This document shows, piece by piece, positions 716 through 20,900 of a stretch of 64,000 nt of DNA (its first letter is position 1; every line of letters begins with the position of its first letter). The position numbers and the translations under genes are program-made. The notes beneath the pieces are model-generated. The model searched no databases. It was not told the DNA's origin and was given only the letters and a program-made list of their open reading frames with translations. The stretch comes from Podarcis cretensis (taxonomy: Eukaryota): assembly GCA_951804945.1 (NCBI GenBank), contig OX638151.1, forward strand, positions 75,578,001 through 75,642,000, written 5' to 3'.

Positions 716-2424
716 GGTGATCACCTGGCAGCTTTTCCTGGCTTACTTCATCAGGATGCAATCCTAAAACTACACTTACAAAGTGGGGACTTACTTCACA
801 GTTGCATTGTTAGACATTGAAAAGGCCCTCTATTTTGTTCTGAAGGAGCATTTTAATGACAGATTTCCTTTTAAAACAGGGTTGGCCTTTGAGTAAGATT
901 CTTTTTCCTTGCAGGGGTGGGGGAAGGAGGAAGGGCTATCACAACAAAGGTCTTTCCAACGACAACAGGAAAAACATAGAGAAAGGGGAGAGAATGATGT
1001 TTAAGGATGTGCGCCAGTGACGGAATGGAGAGAGAGACTGGGGACTGGGAGGAAGAGGAAAGACAGGCCCAAAGAGCAAAAGAGATGAAGGGTTTCTGGA
1101 AGCAACTGTTGTTTTAAGAGATGGCACTGATAGGCACAGAAGAGGCTGTGGGGCTGGCCACTGACCTTTCGGGAGACTCAGGTTACCGCAGCTGTCAATC
1201 TTAAACAATGGCAGAGCTGGCTCCCTCTTCCATAGGCTAGTGATTCCCAAATCGTATCTGGGGCATGCTGCTAAATACGTCACAATAGGGGCTGAAGTAG
1301 AATGTGGGAACATGGCACCATGTTGGACGCCTCCACCTAGGGGTGGCCAGATGCAAATGAGGACAGGGCTCCTCCATGCTTGATAGTTGTGTAGAAAAGG
1401 CCATTTCAGCAAATGTTGCTTGCATGACAAGCTCCACTTGTAGAAATATCCTCTTGTAAGGGTGGTGAGCCTGTGGCTGTCCATAAGCTGCTGAACTTCA
1501 GCTCCTTTCATTCCTGACCAATGGCCATGCTGGCTGGAGCTGTTGGAATGTGGAGCCTAACAACATTTGGAGAGCCACTAGCTCCCCACACTTAAACTGA
1601 AGGTGCAGCAGCACGTTCCTCTCCTCCACCCACCTGGTCAGCCTAAATCCATCACTCCACCTTGACTGAAGTGGTGAGGTTCTATGCAGCATTGATTCCT
1701 GCCTCTTATTAGGAAGGCAGGAAGGTCAACAGTAGGTGGCACCAGAGCCAAGGATTCCAACAGCTGGTGGAACCCAAGCCAGTAGGTGGAGCCAGAACGA
1801 ATCACCAACTAGTTCTAGCTTTCTCCTCCTCCTGCTTGCTGAGTTCCATAATTACAACACTGAAGATAAGTAAGGAGAAGGTGGTAGATGGTGCCATCCC
1901 CTGGACTGGTTAAAAGAATATGGGCAAGAGGTTGTGGGCTGGCTGATGGCAAGCTGAGCTTGGTGGACCTGTCCTCCATTTGCCCTAATGGACTAGCCTT
2001 CACTGTTTCTAGAGGGTGAGTCTTTCAAATGCGGCCTCGTGGAACATGTGTACTCTGTATCCATGGGGCTTCTTTTAAAGGACTCACCCTGTATATGGGC
2101 AGCAACATTGTCCTATGTGAGAGAGTATGGACTAGGGTTCCCTAATGGAGCCTGCATTTTAACTGAGGTGTAAGCAGGAACCTTGATTTTTCACTTCTGC
2201 CCAGAAAGCAGAGTGCCATCCTTTAGAACTGTCTGACTGCGAAATGGCAAAAAACAGATCAGAAGATAAGATTAAGAGAGCTCTCCCCCAATTGCAAATG
2301 TCTCCCTGTTTGGCTGTCCGCTGCTCTCTAATCTGTTTTTTCCAAATATGACAATATATGATAGAGAACGTGGTGGAGGTAGCTGCAGATCTGCAAGGAG
2401 AGGAGTCGGTCTCTTAAAGCCAAT

Positions 2425-2712
2425 ATGGTGGGTGTTCTAGTAACTATAGTTTTGGGAGGTGTAGCCAGCTTGGCAGTGGCCACGATTGCTGTTCCAGCAG
2501 CACTGGGAGCAGTGGGTTTCACTGGAGCTGGAATTGCAGCTGGCTCTCTGGCTGCAAAAATGATGTCAGCAGCGGCCGGCACCAATGGTGGAGGAGTAGC
2601 AGCTGGGAGCGCTGTTGCCGCGCTTCAGGCAATCGGTGCTACTGGGCTGTCCGCTGCTACCACAGCTGCAGTGACAGATGGTGGAGCACTCTTGGCTGCC
2701 ATCTTCCCTTAA
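2425..2712 (+). CDS. IFI27/IFI27L2-like (ISG12 family) small hydrophobic protein, 95 aa, single exon (putative retrogene)
   Basis: Contains the ISG12 signature GFTGAGIAAGSLAAKMMSAAA..NGGGVAAGS.VA.LQ.IGA.GLS. Start context gccaatATGG is good, the ORF is intact with a TAA stop, and there are no introns. Confidence 0.9.
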   Translation: MVGVLVTIVLGGVASLAVATIAVPAALGAVGFTGAGIAAGSLAAKMMSAAAGTNGGGVAAGSAVAALQAIGATGLSAATTAAVTDGGALLAAIFP

Positions 2713-5700
2713 GAAGAAGACACACATACACAGAGGCCATATCTACTTGGAAAAGCAGTACTTGGAAAATTATGCTTTGCCATCGACATAACTCACTTGA
2801 CTTACCTTAAGTAAAATGTGATTTTAACCAATGCTACGTTATTCCTACTGGAAAAAAATGTGAAAAACAAATATAGCTTTGAGAATTAAACAAAAAAAAT
2901 TTTGACAATATACAGAAAATAGATACCAGATAAAATGCAACAATAAAAAGGACTAAATAAAACAACTTAAAATAAAACCACACCAGAAGACTTGCAGCCT
3001 ATTCATCACATATTAAAGTTACAAAACCCATTAATTTTCAAAGGGTCTGTTCATCAGAATAATGGTAAAACAAAATACAGCAACCTGCAAGAGATGTCTT
3101 TTTTGTTGTTGTTCAGTGGAAGAGGGAAGACTGCCTCCAGATGATTCCGGGTGAAGCGGGGGGGGGGGGAGGATAGTGTGTGAAAACCCCCATATAAGAA
3201 GTTTGGGAAAGGTTCCCAGTTTTTTTTTCTGGCAAGAGTTCTTAGGCTTTTAACACCTGTGTGGCAAACAGATATTCAAGAGGTTCCTCAATCACTTTAT
3301 CTGCATGCCGAGAAAATCCACAACTGCAGGATAGCTACATGTTCCTCCCATAAATAAACAAATTTGAACAAATGAATGAATCATAGAAGAGCAGCAACAA
3401 AGTAAGTATGTTATTTGACTGCAAAGCAAACACCTCCAGGTGATTTCATCAAATGGCCTAAACTACATGGAGCTTGTCCAAGCCTGGAATTTAGAAGTGC
3501 ATGTTCTGATGTTGTGCCATATTTCTGATATGATCTGTAATCTGTTGTGTTCTGTAATTAGGTGTTGAGGCTGTAATGCTTCAGAAATGGTTAGAGTCAT
3601 AGAATGGTCCACAGCACTTTCCAAAGTCTAAATACTTGATTATAAGTTGCATTGGGTTACCTTGGGCAAGATAAAAGCATAAATATTATTTAAAAAATAA
3701 TAATAAAAGCAGCTAACGTATTGTATAAATATTAAACACAGCAGCTAGCTAAACTGAAATGTTCAACCTCCCTTTCAAAGCACCACACATATCATTAGAT
3801 TACTGCTACCATGATACCTTATAGGGATGATGGAAGGACTATTTAGATAATATAGTGAACATTTTGGACACTTTATAAAAAGGATGCAACTGCCAAGGGT
3901 TGCTAGTAAAAGCATTAAGAGCCATTAATTTCCACTGAGTTAATTCCAAATGCTATGGTTTAACCATTTCCAGATCAGAGCCCAAAAGAGAAAGTGGGCC
4001 ACTTTTAATGTTAGATGTATAACTGTCAACTAGATGAGAGTAAGCAGAGAGATGGTACAGAAAGATAATAAATCCCAGACACACTGTGCTTTATTTCTAA
4101 AAGAGAGCTGCCGAATATCCAGTTTTTAAGGCAACCTCCAGTTAAAACTTTCTCCTAATGGAATGATTGTTTTGGGGTTATAGATGAGAGATGCTGTTCA
4201 TTGTTTTAATCGCATGTTGTTTTTATATTCAACCTGCAACCTTCTGGCAAAGGGTAAGAAAAATAAAATGATGACGAAGCTAGACTAAAAACTGATATTT
4301 TAAAATGACTCTGAACATTTAGAAAATATATTTCTAAAATATCCATTCTAATTCTCCCAGGGCGCCATTAAATGAAGGCACAGTATCCATTATTTTGTTT
4401 CCCATATTTCCATTATCATGGGGGCATCTCTACAGTATTTTCCATATCAGGTATCAATATATCTTGGGACATGTTATTCACACACATACAGTATTTGATC
4501 AACCTAACTCTCACTTATTTGGTCTGTTTTCAGAAGGGGACTTGGTGTATAATGGTCACAATTACTGGCTGTATGAGAATTTTGCAAATTAGTGTGTGAG
4601 CATGTGGTCACAATGTGGGGGAACGGCCTGTGAAATCATGTGTTTGGGTGCATTATTAGAAACCTAACCTGCATCTCCCCACCAGTTTCTGTAAGGTCTC
4701 AGTCTGGACATTTAGGCAAGCAGAAATGGTGAAAACTCTGAACTTTGTGGGTCCTCAGCTTTCAAAAATAGTTGGAGCAATGTGACTCTTTGTGGCTTGT
4801 GGGAGAAAAATGTGTGCAGACAGTTACGTTTTGACAGCTTAAGTGAATCATTCTATGATTACGCAGCTCTGCAGAGGAAAGTATGTAAACCTAAGGAAGT
4901 ATTTTGAAAAGGATATAAAATTACATTTTTTCTTTCTTAATTTTTATAGTTTCAGTTCATTTCACATTGTCGTAAACCTTATAACTAGAGGTTGGTTAGG
5001 ACCATCTCTGATTAGGTCTATGGGAGAGATGAAAGAAAAGATACTGCTTAAATTAGAACAAAAATTATTTATTTTTATATTTGAATTCAGCTCATCCTTC
5101 AGGTACTGATAGTGAAAACATGGTACCTTCCTATTTGTCTTATTGTGAAGCACTTCTGAAAAAAGGAGAAAACTAAAATCCTTTACACATGGACTATTTC
5201 ACTGTGTATACCAGCGACACAGAATCAGCTTTATTAAATTGACATATGGTATTCTGGTTTAAAAGGCTGCATAATGGACAAAGGGGATGATTGACCCCTG
5301 GGGATTGTCCTGCCCTCGATAAACATACCTATGTATACCTGACCTGGTCAACATGGGCAGGTTGTCATCATTAGTGTTTGCATGCTGTATGCTAGTTAAT
5401 TCTTTCTTGGCTGGCTTCCCTCACTGGATGTCAACAAGGCTCTGTCAAACAGCAGCACCCGAGGCTGCCATTGGGCTAATGCTTGGTCACTTACCATTGG
5501 GCGCCTAGTGTTTCCCCATTGCTCCAAGTTGTTGAATACAGGATCTTCAACCAACTTCAAACTGTAGTTTAGGATCCTGTTATTTCCTGGTTTGGATGAA
5601 ACTGGGAACTATTGTAATAAGAGACTTCCTGGTTTAAAATCATGACCACAGAAAGGGGTTGCTTGCATGAGCTTGTCCATGTCTCAGCTTGTTATGATAC

Positions 5701-16582: not shown

Positions 16583-16627
16583 ATGCAGCTTTTCCAGTAC
16601 CCCGAGGTGTACCGCGAAGAGACATCC
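16583..16627 (+). CDS. PREP: Prolyl endopeptidase coding exon 1 (MQLFQYPEVYREETS)
   Basis: Similar to human MLSLQYPDVYRDETA. 45 nt, followed by donor GTGAGT. Confidence 0.93.
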
Positions 16628-17953
16628 GTGAGTAGCTCCCTGGCCCCCACCTCCCGCCCCCGGATCCCCCCCAGGAGTCCCGGGCAGCTCCCGTCTTGAG
16701 GGCAGCTTCCGGGACCCGGTGGCTTCCTGCCTCCTCGCTTCCTCCTCGGCCACCGGCGCCCCGGTGTGGAAAGGCTTCCCGCATCTATAACACCCTGCGG
16801 ACTTTCCCCGTCAAGCCTGATGCGGAAATAGAGGTGTTTGAAGGGATGGGTGCAGGTGTGATGCAGGGCCGTGTCCTTTGCACACCCATCCACACACCAG
16901 TCTTTCCAACCTGGCCGGTTTGGTCCCAAACCACCGGTGTCGTTTATCTCCTGCCTCTCTCCACTACTTGAGGGTGTGGGGATTGCTGGGGACGGCCGCC
17001 GTGGGTTATTTCGGCAGGTGTGGGTATGCCTGGAGAGGATCGGGGGCCACTTTTGCCACCCAACGACACAGCGTGAGCTGCAGAAGTTTAATGTTGGCAC
17101 ATTTTTTGTCTTGCACAATCTACGAGCCCCAAAAACAAGCACCTGCTGCTCAAGCAGGAAGGCATAATTTCCTCAAATCAGATTGGCCAGTAACCAGATT
17201 GGCTTGCCTGTATATGCCCTGTAAATAGCTTTGTGCAGCACAGTGGCTCTCCACTGAGGGTGCACAATGGGCTGGGTTAGAATAATAAAATTACAGAACT
17301 TTAGAGGCGGAAGGGATGGTTGTGCAGTTGGGGCTGGTGTATGGATAGTGCCACTTGGGAATTCTGAAAATCAAGCCGTGTATAAATCTCTAAAAGAAAC
17401 AGATGGTGTTTCCTTGCAAGCAGAAAAGAAAGGACTTAACCCACACTTCCTCTTGTCCTGCTGCCCCCCGCCCCCCCCCCCCCGTGAAAACCACACTTCA
17501 GCACTCCATCAGAGTAAATGGCAGTTCAGGTTTTTGTTCAGGTTTTCCCTTGGAAAGGAGCAGGGCAAGGGGAAAACCACTCCAATCTGTGCCTAGGAAG
17601 CATAGGGCAATCAGGAAACTCCTCGGACACATGCTTTCTAGGCATGGCACAAGCAGAAGTGTGGGCGAGCCCTGATTTAGAGCTGTTGGAAGCTGTGACC
17701 CTCAAGATGAATATTTTGTTACAAGCCCTGTCATTCCTGACCATTTGCCCTGCTGGCTGGGACTGATGGGAATTGGATCTTGCAGACCAAAGATTCTCAT
17801 CCCTGGTCTAGAGAGACTACCTCTTAATTCTTTGTAGCACAAGTTCTATTAATTTGGGAGCTTGTACACCCACACCCCGCTTACCATGTTCTTGTAGTTT
17901 TGTGTTGGAAATCTTAACTGGAAGGTTGACAAACAATACCTGTTAACAGCTTT

Positions 17954-20900
17954 GTTGTTGTTGTTTTGTCGTTTAGTCGTGTCCGACTCTTCATGACCCC
18001 ATGGACCAGAGCACGCCAGGCACTTCTGTCCTCCACTGCCTCCCGCAGTTTGGTCAGACTCATGTTCGTAGCCTCGAGAACACTGTCTAACCATCTCATC
18101 CTCTGTCGTCTCCTTCTTCTTGTGCCCTCAATCTTTCCCAACACCAGGGTCTTTTCCAGGGAGTCTTCTCTTCTCATGAGGTGGCCAAAGTATTGGAGCC
18201 TCAGCTTCACGATCTGTCCTTCCAGTGAGCACTCAGAGCTGATTTCCTTAAGAATGGATACGTTTAATCTTCTTGCAGTCCATGGGACTCTCAAGAGTCT
18301 CCTCCAGCACCACAATTCAAAAGCATCAGTTCTTCGACAATCAGCCTTCTTTATGGTCCAGCTCTCGCTTCCATACATCACTACTGGGAAAACCATGGCT
18401 TTTACAATACGGACCTTTGTGGGCAAGGTGATGTCTCTGCTTTTTAAGATGTTGTCTAGGTTTGCCATCGCCTTTCTCCCAAGGAGCAGGCGTCTTTTAA
18501 TTTCGTGACTACTGTCACCATCTGCAGTTATCATGGAGCCCAAGAATGTAAAATCTCTCACTGCCTCCATTTCTTCCCCTTCTATTTGCCAGGAGGTGAT
18601 GGGCCCAGTGGCCATGATCTTCGTTTTTTTGCTGTTGAGCTTCAGGCCATATTTTGCGCTCTCCTCTTTCACCCTCATTAAAAGGTTCTTTAATTCCTCC
18701 TCACTTTCTGCCATCAAGGTTGTGTCATCTGCATATCTGAGGTTGTTGATATTTCTTCCGGCGATCTAGCCCAGCCTTTCGCATGATGAATTCTGCATAT
18801 AAGTTAAATAAGCAGGGAGACAATATACAGCCTTGCCGTACTCCTTTCCCAATTTTGAACCAATCAGTTGTTCCATATCCAATTCTAACTGTAGCTTCTT
18901 GTCCCACATAGAGATTTCTCAGGAGACAGATGAGGTGATCAGGCACTCCCATTTCTTTAAGAACTTGCCATAGTTTGCTGTGGTTGACACAGTCAAAGGC
19001 TTTTGCATAGTCAATGAAGCAGAAGTAGATGTCTTTCTAGAACTCTCTAGCTTTCTCCATAATCCAGCGCATGTTTGCAATTTGGTCTCTGGTTCCTCTG
19101 ACCCTTCGAAATCCAGCTTGCATTTCTGGGAGTTCTTGGTCCACATACTGCTTAAGCCTGCCTTGTAGAATTTTAAGCATAACCTTGCTAGCGTGTGAAA
19201 TGAGTGCAATTGTGCGGTAGTTGGAGCATTCTTTGGCACTGCCCTTCTTTGGGATTGGGATGTAGACTGATCTTCTCCAATCCTCTGGCCACTGCCAAAT
19301 TTGCTGGCATATTGAGTGTAGCACCTTAACAGCATCATCTTTTAAAATTTTAAATAGTTCAGCTGGAATATCATCACTTCTACTGGCCTTGTTATTAGCA
19401 GTGCTTTCTAAGGCCCATTTGACTTCACTCTCCAGGATGTCTGGCTCAAGGTCGGCAACCACACTACCTGGGGTATAGGAGACATCCATTTCTTTCTGGT
19501 ATAATTCCTCTGTGTATTCTTGCCACCTCTTCTTGATGTCTTCTGCTTCTGTTAGGTCCTTTCCACTTTTGTCTTTTATTATGGTAATCTTTGTATGAAA
19601 TGTTCATTTCATATCTCCAATTTTCTTGAACAGATCTCTGGTTTTTCCCATTCTGTTGTTTTCCTCTATTTCTTTGCATTGCTCGTTTAAGAAGGCCTTC
19701 TTGTCTCTCCTTGCTATTTTTTGGAAATCTGCATTCAATTTCCTGTATCTTTCTCTATCTCCCTTGCATTTTGCTTGCCTTCTCTTCCCCGCTATTTGTA
19801 AGGCCTCGTTGGACAGCCACTTTGCTTTCTTGCATTTCCTTTTCATTGGGATGGTTTTAGTTGCTGCCTCCTGTATAATGTTAAGAGCCTCCATCCACAG
19901 TTCTTCAGGCACTCTGTCCACCAAATCTAAATCCTTAAACCTGTTCCTCACTTCCACTGTGTATTCATAAGGGATTTGACTTAGATTGTATCTTACCGGC
20001 CCAGTGGTTTTTCCTACTTTCTTCAGTTTAAGCTTGAATTTTGCTATAAGAAGCTGATGATCTGAGCCACAGTCAGCTCCAGGTCTTGTTTTTGCTAACT
20101 GTATAGAGCTTCTCCATCTTTGGCTGCAGAGAATATAATCAATCTGATTTCGATGCTGCCCATCTGGTGAAGTCCATGTGTAGAGTCGTCTCTTGTGTTG
20201 TTGGAAAAGAGTGTTTGTGATGACCAGCTTGTTCTCTTGGCAGAACTCTATTAGCCTTTGCCCTGCTTCGTTTTGAACTCCAAGGCCAAACTTGCCAGTT
20301 GTTCCTTTTATCTCTTGACTCCCTACTTTAGCATTCCAATCCCCTATAATGAGAAGAACATCCTTCTTTGGTGTCATTTCTATAAGGTGTTGTAAGTCTT
20401 CATAGAATTGCTCAATTTCAGTTTCTTCAGCACTAGTGGTTGGTGCATAAACTTGGATTACTGTGATGTTAAAAGGTCTGCCTTGGATTCGTATCGATAT
20501 CATTCTATCATTTTTGAGATTGCATCCCAGTACAGCTTTCGCCACTCTTTTGTTGACTATGAGGGCCACTCCATTTCTTTTACGGGTTTCTTGCCCACAG
20601 TAGTAGATATGATGGTCGTCCGAACTGAATTCGCTCATTCCCGTCCATTGTAGTTCACTGATGCCCAGGATGTCAATATTTATTCTTGCCATCTCATTTT
20701 TGACCACCTCCAACTTACCCAGGTTCATGGTTCTTATATTCCAGGTTCCTATGCAATATTTTTCTTTACAGCATTGGACTTTCCTTTCGCTTCCAGGCAT
20801 ATCCGCAACTGAGCGTCCTTTCGGCTTTGGCCCAGCCGCTTCATCAGCTCTGAATCTACTTGTACTTGTCCTCCGCTCTTCCTCAGTAGCATGTTGGACG

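Follow-up and report, generated by a model that had tools for sequence, protein, structure and literature searches.

We analysed a 64,000-nt window of the Podarcis cretensis genome (contig OX638151.1, positions 75,578,001 to 75,642,000) and found an intronless ISG12 unit that is a retrocopy of the spliced mRNA of a five-exon gene. The unit lies 13.7 kb upstream of the start codon of a gene that we take to be PREP, on the basis of its Pfam domains (PF02897 and PF00326) and general knowledge of the gene. The features of the locus, in window coordinates, are as follows.

2349..2358, + strand: 5' copy of the target-site duplication, an exact 10-nt repeat (TGACAATATA) that may reach left to 2344 or 2348
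2361..2408, + strand: 5' UTR from parent exon 1 (C8:30184661-30184708), 88% identity over 43 nt, exact junction
2409..2440, + strand: parent exon 2 including the ATG (2425), 94% identity
2425..2712, + strand: 95-codon ISG12-family open reading frame with no stop and no frameshift
2441..2473, + strand: parent exon 3, joined exactly to its neighbours
2474..2635, + strand: parent exon 4, the core of the ISG12 motif, 92.7% identity to gene B; contains I52G, A53T and S69A
2636..2891, + strand: parent exon 5, with the last part of the coding sequence (A85D) and the 3' UTR, 86-90% identity to genes B and A
2870..2875, + strand: inherited poly(A) signal, now AATATA in place of AATAAA (2874 A>T)
2885..2890, + strand: ATTAAA, found at the cleavage site in the parent's genomic DNA immediately ahead of a (CAA)3 run
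2892..2899, + strand: poly(A) remnant (A8), absent from parent DNA, which reads AACAACAA
2903..2912, + strand: 3' copy of the target-site duplication, exact 10-nt repeat
2942..2976, + strand: three flanking AATAAA (2942, 2956 and 2971), a candidate new poly(A) signal
16583..16627, + strand: likely first PREP coding exon, within a CpG island, with the N-terminal peptidase S9 exons starting at about 22563

Window positions 2361-2899 align colinearly with an ISG12/IFI27L2A-type gene of five exons on contig C8, a different chromosome. All four parental GT-AG introns (2979, 1093, 854 and 103 nt, the first two bordering exon 2) are absent, and the exons are joined exactly. The intron-containing parent, the colinearity with its spliced mRNA and the non-syntenic position of the copy near PREP all agree with the preliminary description, which had also considered that squamate ISG12 paralogues might all have a single exon; that possibility falls because the C8 parent has four introns and its five exons are joined exactly in the copy.

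The 95-aa frame, with no introns, frameshifts or stops, was confirmed at every coordinate. Its translation matches PF06140 (Ifi-6-16) over residues 13-93 with an E-value of 1.3e-23 and a score of 83 bits (cut-off 29.1), covering profile positions 3-83 of 84, the ∼80-residue ISG12 motif. The start context is good, as described previously (retrocopy GCCAATATGG, parent GCCAACATGG). The copy shares the full motif with the ISG12/IFI27/IFI6 family and with the lacertid "IFI27-like 2A" genes, and its protein is 84% identical to Podarcis muralis XP_028594690.1; it differs from the lacertid genes in lacking introns and a nearby interferon-stimulated response element (ISRE) core. No exact match to the retrocopy protein was found in the protein collection searched, whose nearest entry shows 88% identity, and the translation of parent gene B is identical to CAI5781636.1/XP_028594698.1.

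The insertion carries the marks expected of a processed retrocopy. The A8 tract is a non-templated tail placed at the parent's cleavage site, and the 10-nt direct repeat, previously proposed as a target-site duplication, is exact at both junctions. The window contains the repeat three times where 0.14 would be expected, a count that none of 100 shuffles attains (the motif being chosen post hoc), and the chance of a shared 10-mer between two random 30-nt flank pieces is 0.00085. The insertion occupies the same site in all four sequencing runs examined, under four organism labels, and among the lacertids covered by these runs both junctions are bridged by contigs in 4/4 with no empty-site joint. 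Base 2900 is A in runs X3, X10 and X14 and base 2901 is A in X3 and X10, indicating that the tail was ∼A10 and that the duplication may be 11-15 nt long, its 3' copy carrying one change.

The 3' UTR spans 2713-2891 (179 nt), close to the length of about 170 nt given earlier. The ATTAAA that had been read as its poly(A) signal is instead parental cleavage-site sequence one base from the tail, and not the inherited signal. In the parent an AATAAA sits 16 nt before the tail position; it is kept in the alignment by 3/3 parent genes and by 3/3 other retrocopies that retain the region, and is mutated in the window copy.

The parental interferon-response element was left out of the copy. The ISRE core TTTCNNTTTC lies at −139 in gene B and −146 in gene C, and a scan for this sole core pattern found none between −18 kb and +12 kb of the retrocopy. 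No CpG-rich kilobase was found between −28 kb and 16 kb. Homology to the parents starts where genes B and C have their TATA-like box, and the 5' UTR begins ∼25 nt further upstream than those of the retrocopies on C17 and C11. Of the RNA or guessed-RNA runs, six contain 0.06-0.07 of the query words and one, guessed to be RNA and carrying the species label of the best-matching runs, contains 0.00, which is no evidence on expression either way.

On the retrocopy branch we counted 11 non-synonymous and 6 synonymous changes from the inferred ancestor, giving a pN/pS of 0.88 (interval 0.30-2.89) that does not depart from neutrality (P 0.49), at the low power of 17 changes. An omega of 0.2 is rejected (P 0.003), as is 0.3 (P 0.026), and 0.5 is not (P 0.19). 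For the dN/dS comparison foreseen in the preliminary description, this means a neutral-like ratio with a constraint of omega 0.5 not rejected. A looser ancestor gave 6/4 changes and a ratio of 0.67-0.75, affected by a spurious 5-nt block; it was replaced because that block hid the changes at codon 52. The intact parents are also rich in amino-acid changes from the same ancestor (amino-acid/silent: B 6/1, A 5/1, C 7/2), so pN/pS alone cannot separate live from dead genes in the ISG12 family.

The substituted residues also point to decay. Among the homologues listed, the retrocopy residues of I52G, A53T, S69A and A85D occur in 0/120, 0/120, 0/120 and 0/113 sequences; residue 52 is I, V, L or M in all 120, A53 is A in 118 and S69 is S in 120. 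A53 and S69 are also nearly invariant in a 53-sequence alignment, and the changes I52G, A53T and S69A have thus removed motif residues that a functional gene would be expected to keep, while A85D places a charge in the hydrophobic C-terminal stretch. Within residues 12-91, four of eight changes lead to a residue unseen in the homologues listed, where neutrality predicts 48%. The rate among the homologues themselves is 148/2929 (5.1%), biased low because related proteins share changes; against it the excess in the retrocopy has P 4e-4, or P = 0.004 with the adjacent codons 52/53 taken as one event, and with an assumed rate of 15% P is 0.07.

An open frame of this size is readily kept by chance. 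In 1500 neutral simulations of 95 codons at the same divergence, 74% kept the ATG and gained no stop; the simulation was run without indels, and the retrocopy frame is also free of them. The orthologous pieces, which take in codons 1-40 in X3 and X5 and a smaller number in X10 and X14, show no frame break; the long orthologous contigs among them fall outside the mid-frame stretch at about 2548-2737.

The preliminary description had called the copy LINE-mediated. The poly(A) remnant together with the duplication supports this, and an L1-type retrotransposon is the likely agent of the insertion. The L1 target consensus is TT/AAAA, and the retrocopy site, CC/AAAT, is a loose fit to it with poly(A) present. 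A genome search for L1 ORF1 (PF02994) was blank and uninformative, and zf-RVT (PF13966), with two weak matches among 150 scored of 7079 candidates, was equally uninformative on L1; nor does PMC11303007 bear on L1 in lacertids.

A second candidate was a Bov-B-like repeat, since the 13 bases that finish parent genes A and C (TAAACAACAACAA) also stand at the end of this family here. Its name comes from a match to the Bov-B (RTE) LINE insertions of squamates described in PMC13295347. The genome holds 9174 exact 32-nt ends of the repeat, and its copies are 3219 nt long with one 1036-aa endonuclease and reverse-transcriptase frame. Duplications were found for 29/70 copies, with T at −1 in 86% and A at 0 in 76%, reproducing the Tn-TA target signature, which marks Bov-B insertions together with a (CAA)n tail lacking poly(A). 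The retrocopy duplication, at 10-11 nt, is within the Bov-B range, but the retrocopy has a poly(A) tail and none of 70 Bov-B-like ends has A6 or more. On a site profile trained on those 25 of the 29 sites whose duplications reach at least 8 nt, the retrocopy scores 0.5 as the best of six starts (chance 0.42) against a training median of ∼4.8, and the best starts on C6 and C11 score 1.7. Genome-wide, the 13-mer follows AATAAA 76 times, and the reversed control gives 90. With a poly(A) tail, a site score at chance and no enrichment of AATAAA with the 13-mer over the control, Bov-B was rejected as the mobilising LINE.

Four other ISG12 retrocopies in the same genome are all damaged, leaving the window copy as the only one of five with a full-length frame. 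The five derive from at least three parent types in one interferon-induced family, implying that the parent mRNAs reach the germ line. Processed pseudogenes made by target-primed reverse transcription (PMC5470649) share with our copy the intron loss, poly(A) remnant, target-site duplication, dispersed site and loss of the parent regulatory region, with no categorical difference. An open frame is reported for 22.5% of lepidosaur retrocopies (bioRxiv 10.64898/2026.06.26.734816), and the window copy is of this kind. Against decay, many intact lizard retrocopies are reported to be constrained, 136/404 in Anolis being classed as retrogenes (PMC3136929). The primate IFITM retrogenes (PMC10415907) resemble the present case in that both are clustered interferon-induced families of small membrane proteins with dispersed retrocopies; the ISG12 copy belongs to another family and lineage, and a function for it is not supported. 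Among the papers listed on the subject, none dealt with ISG12/IFI27 retrocopies in lizards or other reptiles.

We consider the copy a probable processed pseudogene, young and drifting free of selection. Of the two fates left open in the preliminary description, this one is favoured and a functional retrogene is not supported, because pN/pS is neutral-like, near-invariant residues are hit, the poly(A) signal is mutated and no ISRE core is nearby. A five-exon ISG12 mRNA, spliced and poly(A)-tailed, would have been copied in the germ line through target-primed reverse transcription by poly(A)-binding (L1-type) machinery. Interferon control would have been lost on insertion, because the parent's ISRE was left behind, and the copy would since have decayed neutrally, its frame perhaps still open because it is short and ∼6% diverged.

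It is unlikely that the copy is instead an expressed retrogene, with a local promoter (perhaps using part of the TATA region) and the flanking AATAAA giving a divergent ISG12 protein outside interferon control, its changes at conserved sites being relaxed or adaptive. The intact frame with its strong start context, unique among the five copies and retained under four organism labels, the homology start at the TATA-like box, the three AATAAA lying no more than 80 nt from the tail and the compatibility with omega 0.5 all speak for expression; the four unseen residues, the mutated inherited signal, the missing ISRE core and CpG island nearby, the want of a matching annotated protein and a frame survival likely by chance speak against it. 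A wall-lizard-specific ISG12 retrogene, free of interferon control, remodelled at its most conserved residues and served by a new promoter, seems rather unlikely to us; in that case the copy would be the sole survivor of at least five ISG12 retrotranspositions. Transcription with no selected protein, whether at a low level or as antisense reading that comes from the PREP CpG-island promoter, is very improbable: 13.7 kb is a long distance for divergent promoter transcripts. In its favour, the island lies 13-14 kb downstream, and 18% of Anolis retrocopies have EST support (PMC3136929). Practically no probability attaches to a DNA-level duplicate, an ancestral single-exon gene or an assembly artefact, refuted by the exact loss of four introns; the non-templated tail, the direct repeat, the bridged junctions in 4/4 runs and a flank homology to the C8 cluster limited to a single 39-nt match (E 0.009) stand against it as well.

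As a pseudogene, it would be a processed copy of the ordinary sort, whose presence or absence could be used as a marker in wall-lizard phylogeny, and it would caution that "IFI27-like 2A" models that are short and lack introns in lacertid annotations can turn out to be retrocopies. If expressed and under selection, it would show how retrotransposition can free an antiviral gene of a reptile from interferon control. That one small interferon-induced family has five retrocopies is a mildly interesting wider pattern.

A search of the window's own genome identified three ISG12 genes with introns (A, B and C), clustered at 30.17–30.29 Mb of contig C8, and four further intronless ISG12 copies on contigs C1, C6, C11 and C17. 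Gene B has five exons separated by GT-AG introns of 2979, 1093, 854 and 103 nt, and its protein is identical to the annotated Podarcis protein P0129. The intronless copy in the window (2361-2899) is colinear with the gene B exons, with exact joins at 4/4 junctions and 89% overall identity, in keeping with the spliced, intron-containing parent anticipated in the preliminary description. The parents read AACAACAA at the place of the window A tract, so the tail is non-templated, and together with the exact exon joins this tail shows the RNA origin of the window copy. Its status as a genuine processed retrocopy, derived from a lacertid ISG12 gene, is virtually beyond doubt. At the 5' end its exons are B-type, and its 3' UTR has kept an 11-nt stretch present in A and absent from B, suggesting that an ancestral version of the present C8 genes served as the donor.

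The 95-residue ISG12-family ORF described earlier was confirmed: the frame, at 2425-2712, aligns with PF06140 (ISG12/IFI6 family, Pfam) across 81/84 profile positions, and its top squamate matches, among the 120 listed of 452, are 'IFI27-like 2A' proteins of Podarcis, Lacerta and Zootoca, pointing to a lacertid genome, probably that of a Podarcis wall lizard. No exact copy of the protein was found in the protein collection (top identity ≤88%). The A tract and the flanking repeat lie where they had been placed:

2892-2899, A8 tract
2349-2358 and 2903-2912, direct repeat TGACAATATA

The chance rate of a 10-mer common to two random 30-nt flank pieces is 0.00085. The 14 nt at window 2312-2325 recur exactly within the ORF, at 2645-2658. 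They lie 24 nt ahead of the 5' duplication, and the match may reflect chance or a small templated piece.

The combination of a poly(A) remnant and a target-site duplication is described as an L1 hallmark (PMC5470649), and L1 poly(A) recognition is described as relaxed, while several other LINEs require their own 3' end (PMC3747384). Bov-B was tried as an alternative mobiliser because the last 13 bases of parents A and C are the end of a Bov-B-like family, which has 9174 exact ends in the genome. The account of Podarcis Bov-B gives a (CAA)n end and a Tn-TA target signature (PMC13295347), the latter reproduced in this genome from 29/70 Bov-B-like copies. The window site is at chance level on this signature, an A6 run occurs in 0/70 Bov-B-like ends, and AATAAA followed by the shared 13 bases shows no enrichment in the genome (76 vs 90 for the reversed control). 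The LINE-mediated copying proposed earlier fits the poly(A) remnant and the duplication, Bov-B is unsupported, and L1-type priming would be the default route of insertion.

The ATTAAA at 2885-2890, previously taken for the poly(A) signal, stands a single base away from the tail and represents parent sequence at the cleavage site. The inherited signal is an AATAAA 16 nt earlier, shared by all three parents and by the three of the other retrocopies that retain the region; the window copy has AATATA at this position. The human ISG12A promoter is reported to have an ISRE (PMC5578005), and genes B and C have an ISRE core ∼140 nt upstream of exon 1. No ISRE core was found around the window copy in a scan from −18 kb to +12 kb. 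Relative to the C17 and C11 copies, homology of the window copy extends ∼25 nt further upstream and begins at the position of the TATA-like box of the parents, so there is slight room for a putative basal promoter.

The ancestral frame was taken as the majority across five copy groups and the window, with ties (9) resolved to the window. On the window branch, 11 non-synonymous changes in 192.8 sites and 6 synonymous changes in 92.2 sites give a pN/pS of 0.88 (interval 0.30–2.89; P 0.49 against neutrality); omega values of 0.2 and 0.3 are rejected and 0.5 is compatible. A looser ancestor yields 6 to 4 changes on this branch, and the direct comparison with gene B 17 to 7 (ratio 1.07–1.21). The pN/pS discriminates poorly, since amino-acid changes from the ancestor are in excess in the intact parents too (amino-acid/silent: B 6/1, A 5/1, C 7/2); the kind of change is more informative. 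The residues introduced by I52G, A53T, S69A and A85D occur in 0/120, 0/120, 0/120 and 0/113 homologues, respectively (120 listed of 452 matches). Within residues 12–91, 4/8 changes in the window copy are to unseen residues, as compared to 48% expected from random mutation and 5.1% (148/2929) among real homologues. The excess over the homologue rate has a P of 4e-4, or 0.004 with codons 52/53 treated as a single event, or 0.07 with that rate set at a more cautious, assumed 15%. In neutral simulations (n = 1500, 17 substitutions, substitutions only, without indels), 74% retained the ATG and gained no stop, so the open frame is little evidence of function.

The preliminary description had left the choice between a functional retrogene and a recent pseudogene. 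The pN/pS, the unseen residues and the AATATA favor the second, and on sequence grounds the window copy is quite probably a young pseudogene. The start of homology at the TATA-like box and the compatible omega of 0.5 would suit an expressed retrogene, but this putative role is improbable given the four unseen residues, the absence of an ISRE core from the scanned region and a frame survival expected by chance.

All four other retrocopies are damaged, leaving a full frame in the window copy only (1/5), the outcome expected if short frames decay at random:

C6 copy, 16-nt deletion and frameshift
C11 copy, deletions of 9 nt and 2 nt, 3' UTR with an insertion
C17 copy (G000:C17:34309454-34309756; extracted locus L013:1501-1810), ISG12 sequence lost at about codon 90, the frame continuing into another repeat
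C1 copy (G000:C1:57089339-57089682; extracted locus L015:1427-1770), without exon 4, ∼40 residues encoded

The C11 insertion (about 350 nt, extracted locus L012:1934-2286) has an ACCTTT-type repeat at its end, a feature described for Sauria SINEs (PMC13295347). Translated in frame, the C17 5' UTR matches on visual comparison the N-terminal extension seen in the 109-residue annotated proteins P0003 and P0005, whose gene models are therefore probably orthologues of the C17 retrocopy; their C-terminus is intact, where the C17 copy has the repeat in its place. In the C1 copy exon 3 is joined to exon 5, and its source was probably an mRNA from which exon 4 had been skipped. Exon 3 and the C-terminus of this copy are nearer to Lacerta and Zootoca proteins than to any present C8 parent.

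The likely PREP start codon is at 16583, 13.7 kb downstream of the window copy and on the same strand. Further along the contig, beyond PREP, come exons of the POPDC family, as in the gene order at human 6q21. From −28 kb up to the PREP island, no kilobase was CpG-rich. Contigs span both junctions of the insertion in 4/4 runs; these runs carry four organism labels and belong to four studies, possibly including the source study of the window itself, and no empty site was seen in them. The bridging contigs differ from the window by 0 to about 2 letters per 100, against 17 changes in 288 coding bases of the window copy since the inferred ancestor, which argues that the insertion took place before these organisms diverged. 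Three other features were observed in the window:

939-1556, minus strand, 205 codons without a stop including a 190-residue ATG frame, probably chance or repeat-derived
2010-2093, short element whose inverted arms are 34 nt long, summed contig depth very high in 4/4 runs, probably an abundant MITE-like repeat
about 17950-18030, minus strand, Bov-B-like 3' end with a (CAA)n tail, within the PREP first intron

Retrocopies are common in lizards: 404 are reported for Anolis, 217 of them intact and 136 classed as retrogenes (PMC3136929), and 22.5% of lepidosaur retrocopies are reported to have an open frame (bioRxiv 10.64898/2026.06.26.734816). No paper on lizard ISG12 retrocopies was found among those listed in literature searches, and the supplements of the lepidosaur study may include this locus.

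Among the C8 genes, exon 2 of paralogue A (C8:30174474-30181735) is without its ATG and splice donor owing to an internal change. The C6 retrocopy retains this ATG, and its 5' end matches A exon 1 at 98%. In paralogue C (C8:30276748-30277671, minus strand) the exon 4-exon 5 region is internally duplicated and the last exon has an insertion, and this gene may be broken. If so, gene B would be the sole intact gene of the C8 cluster.
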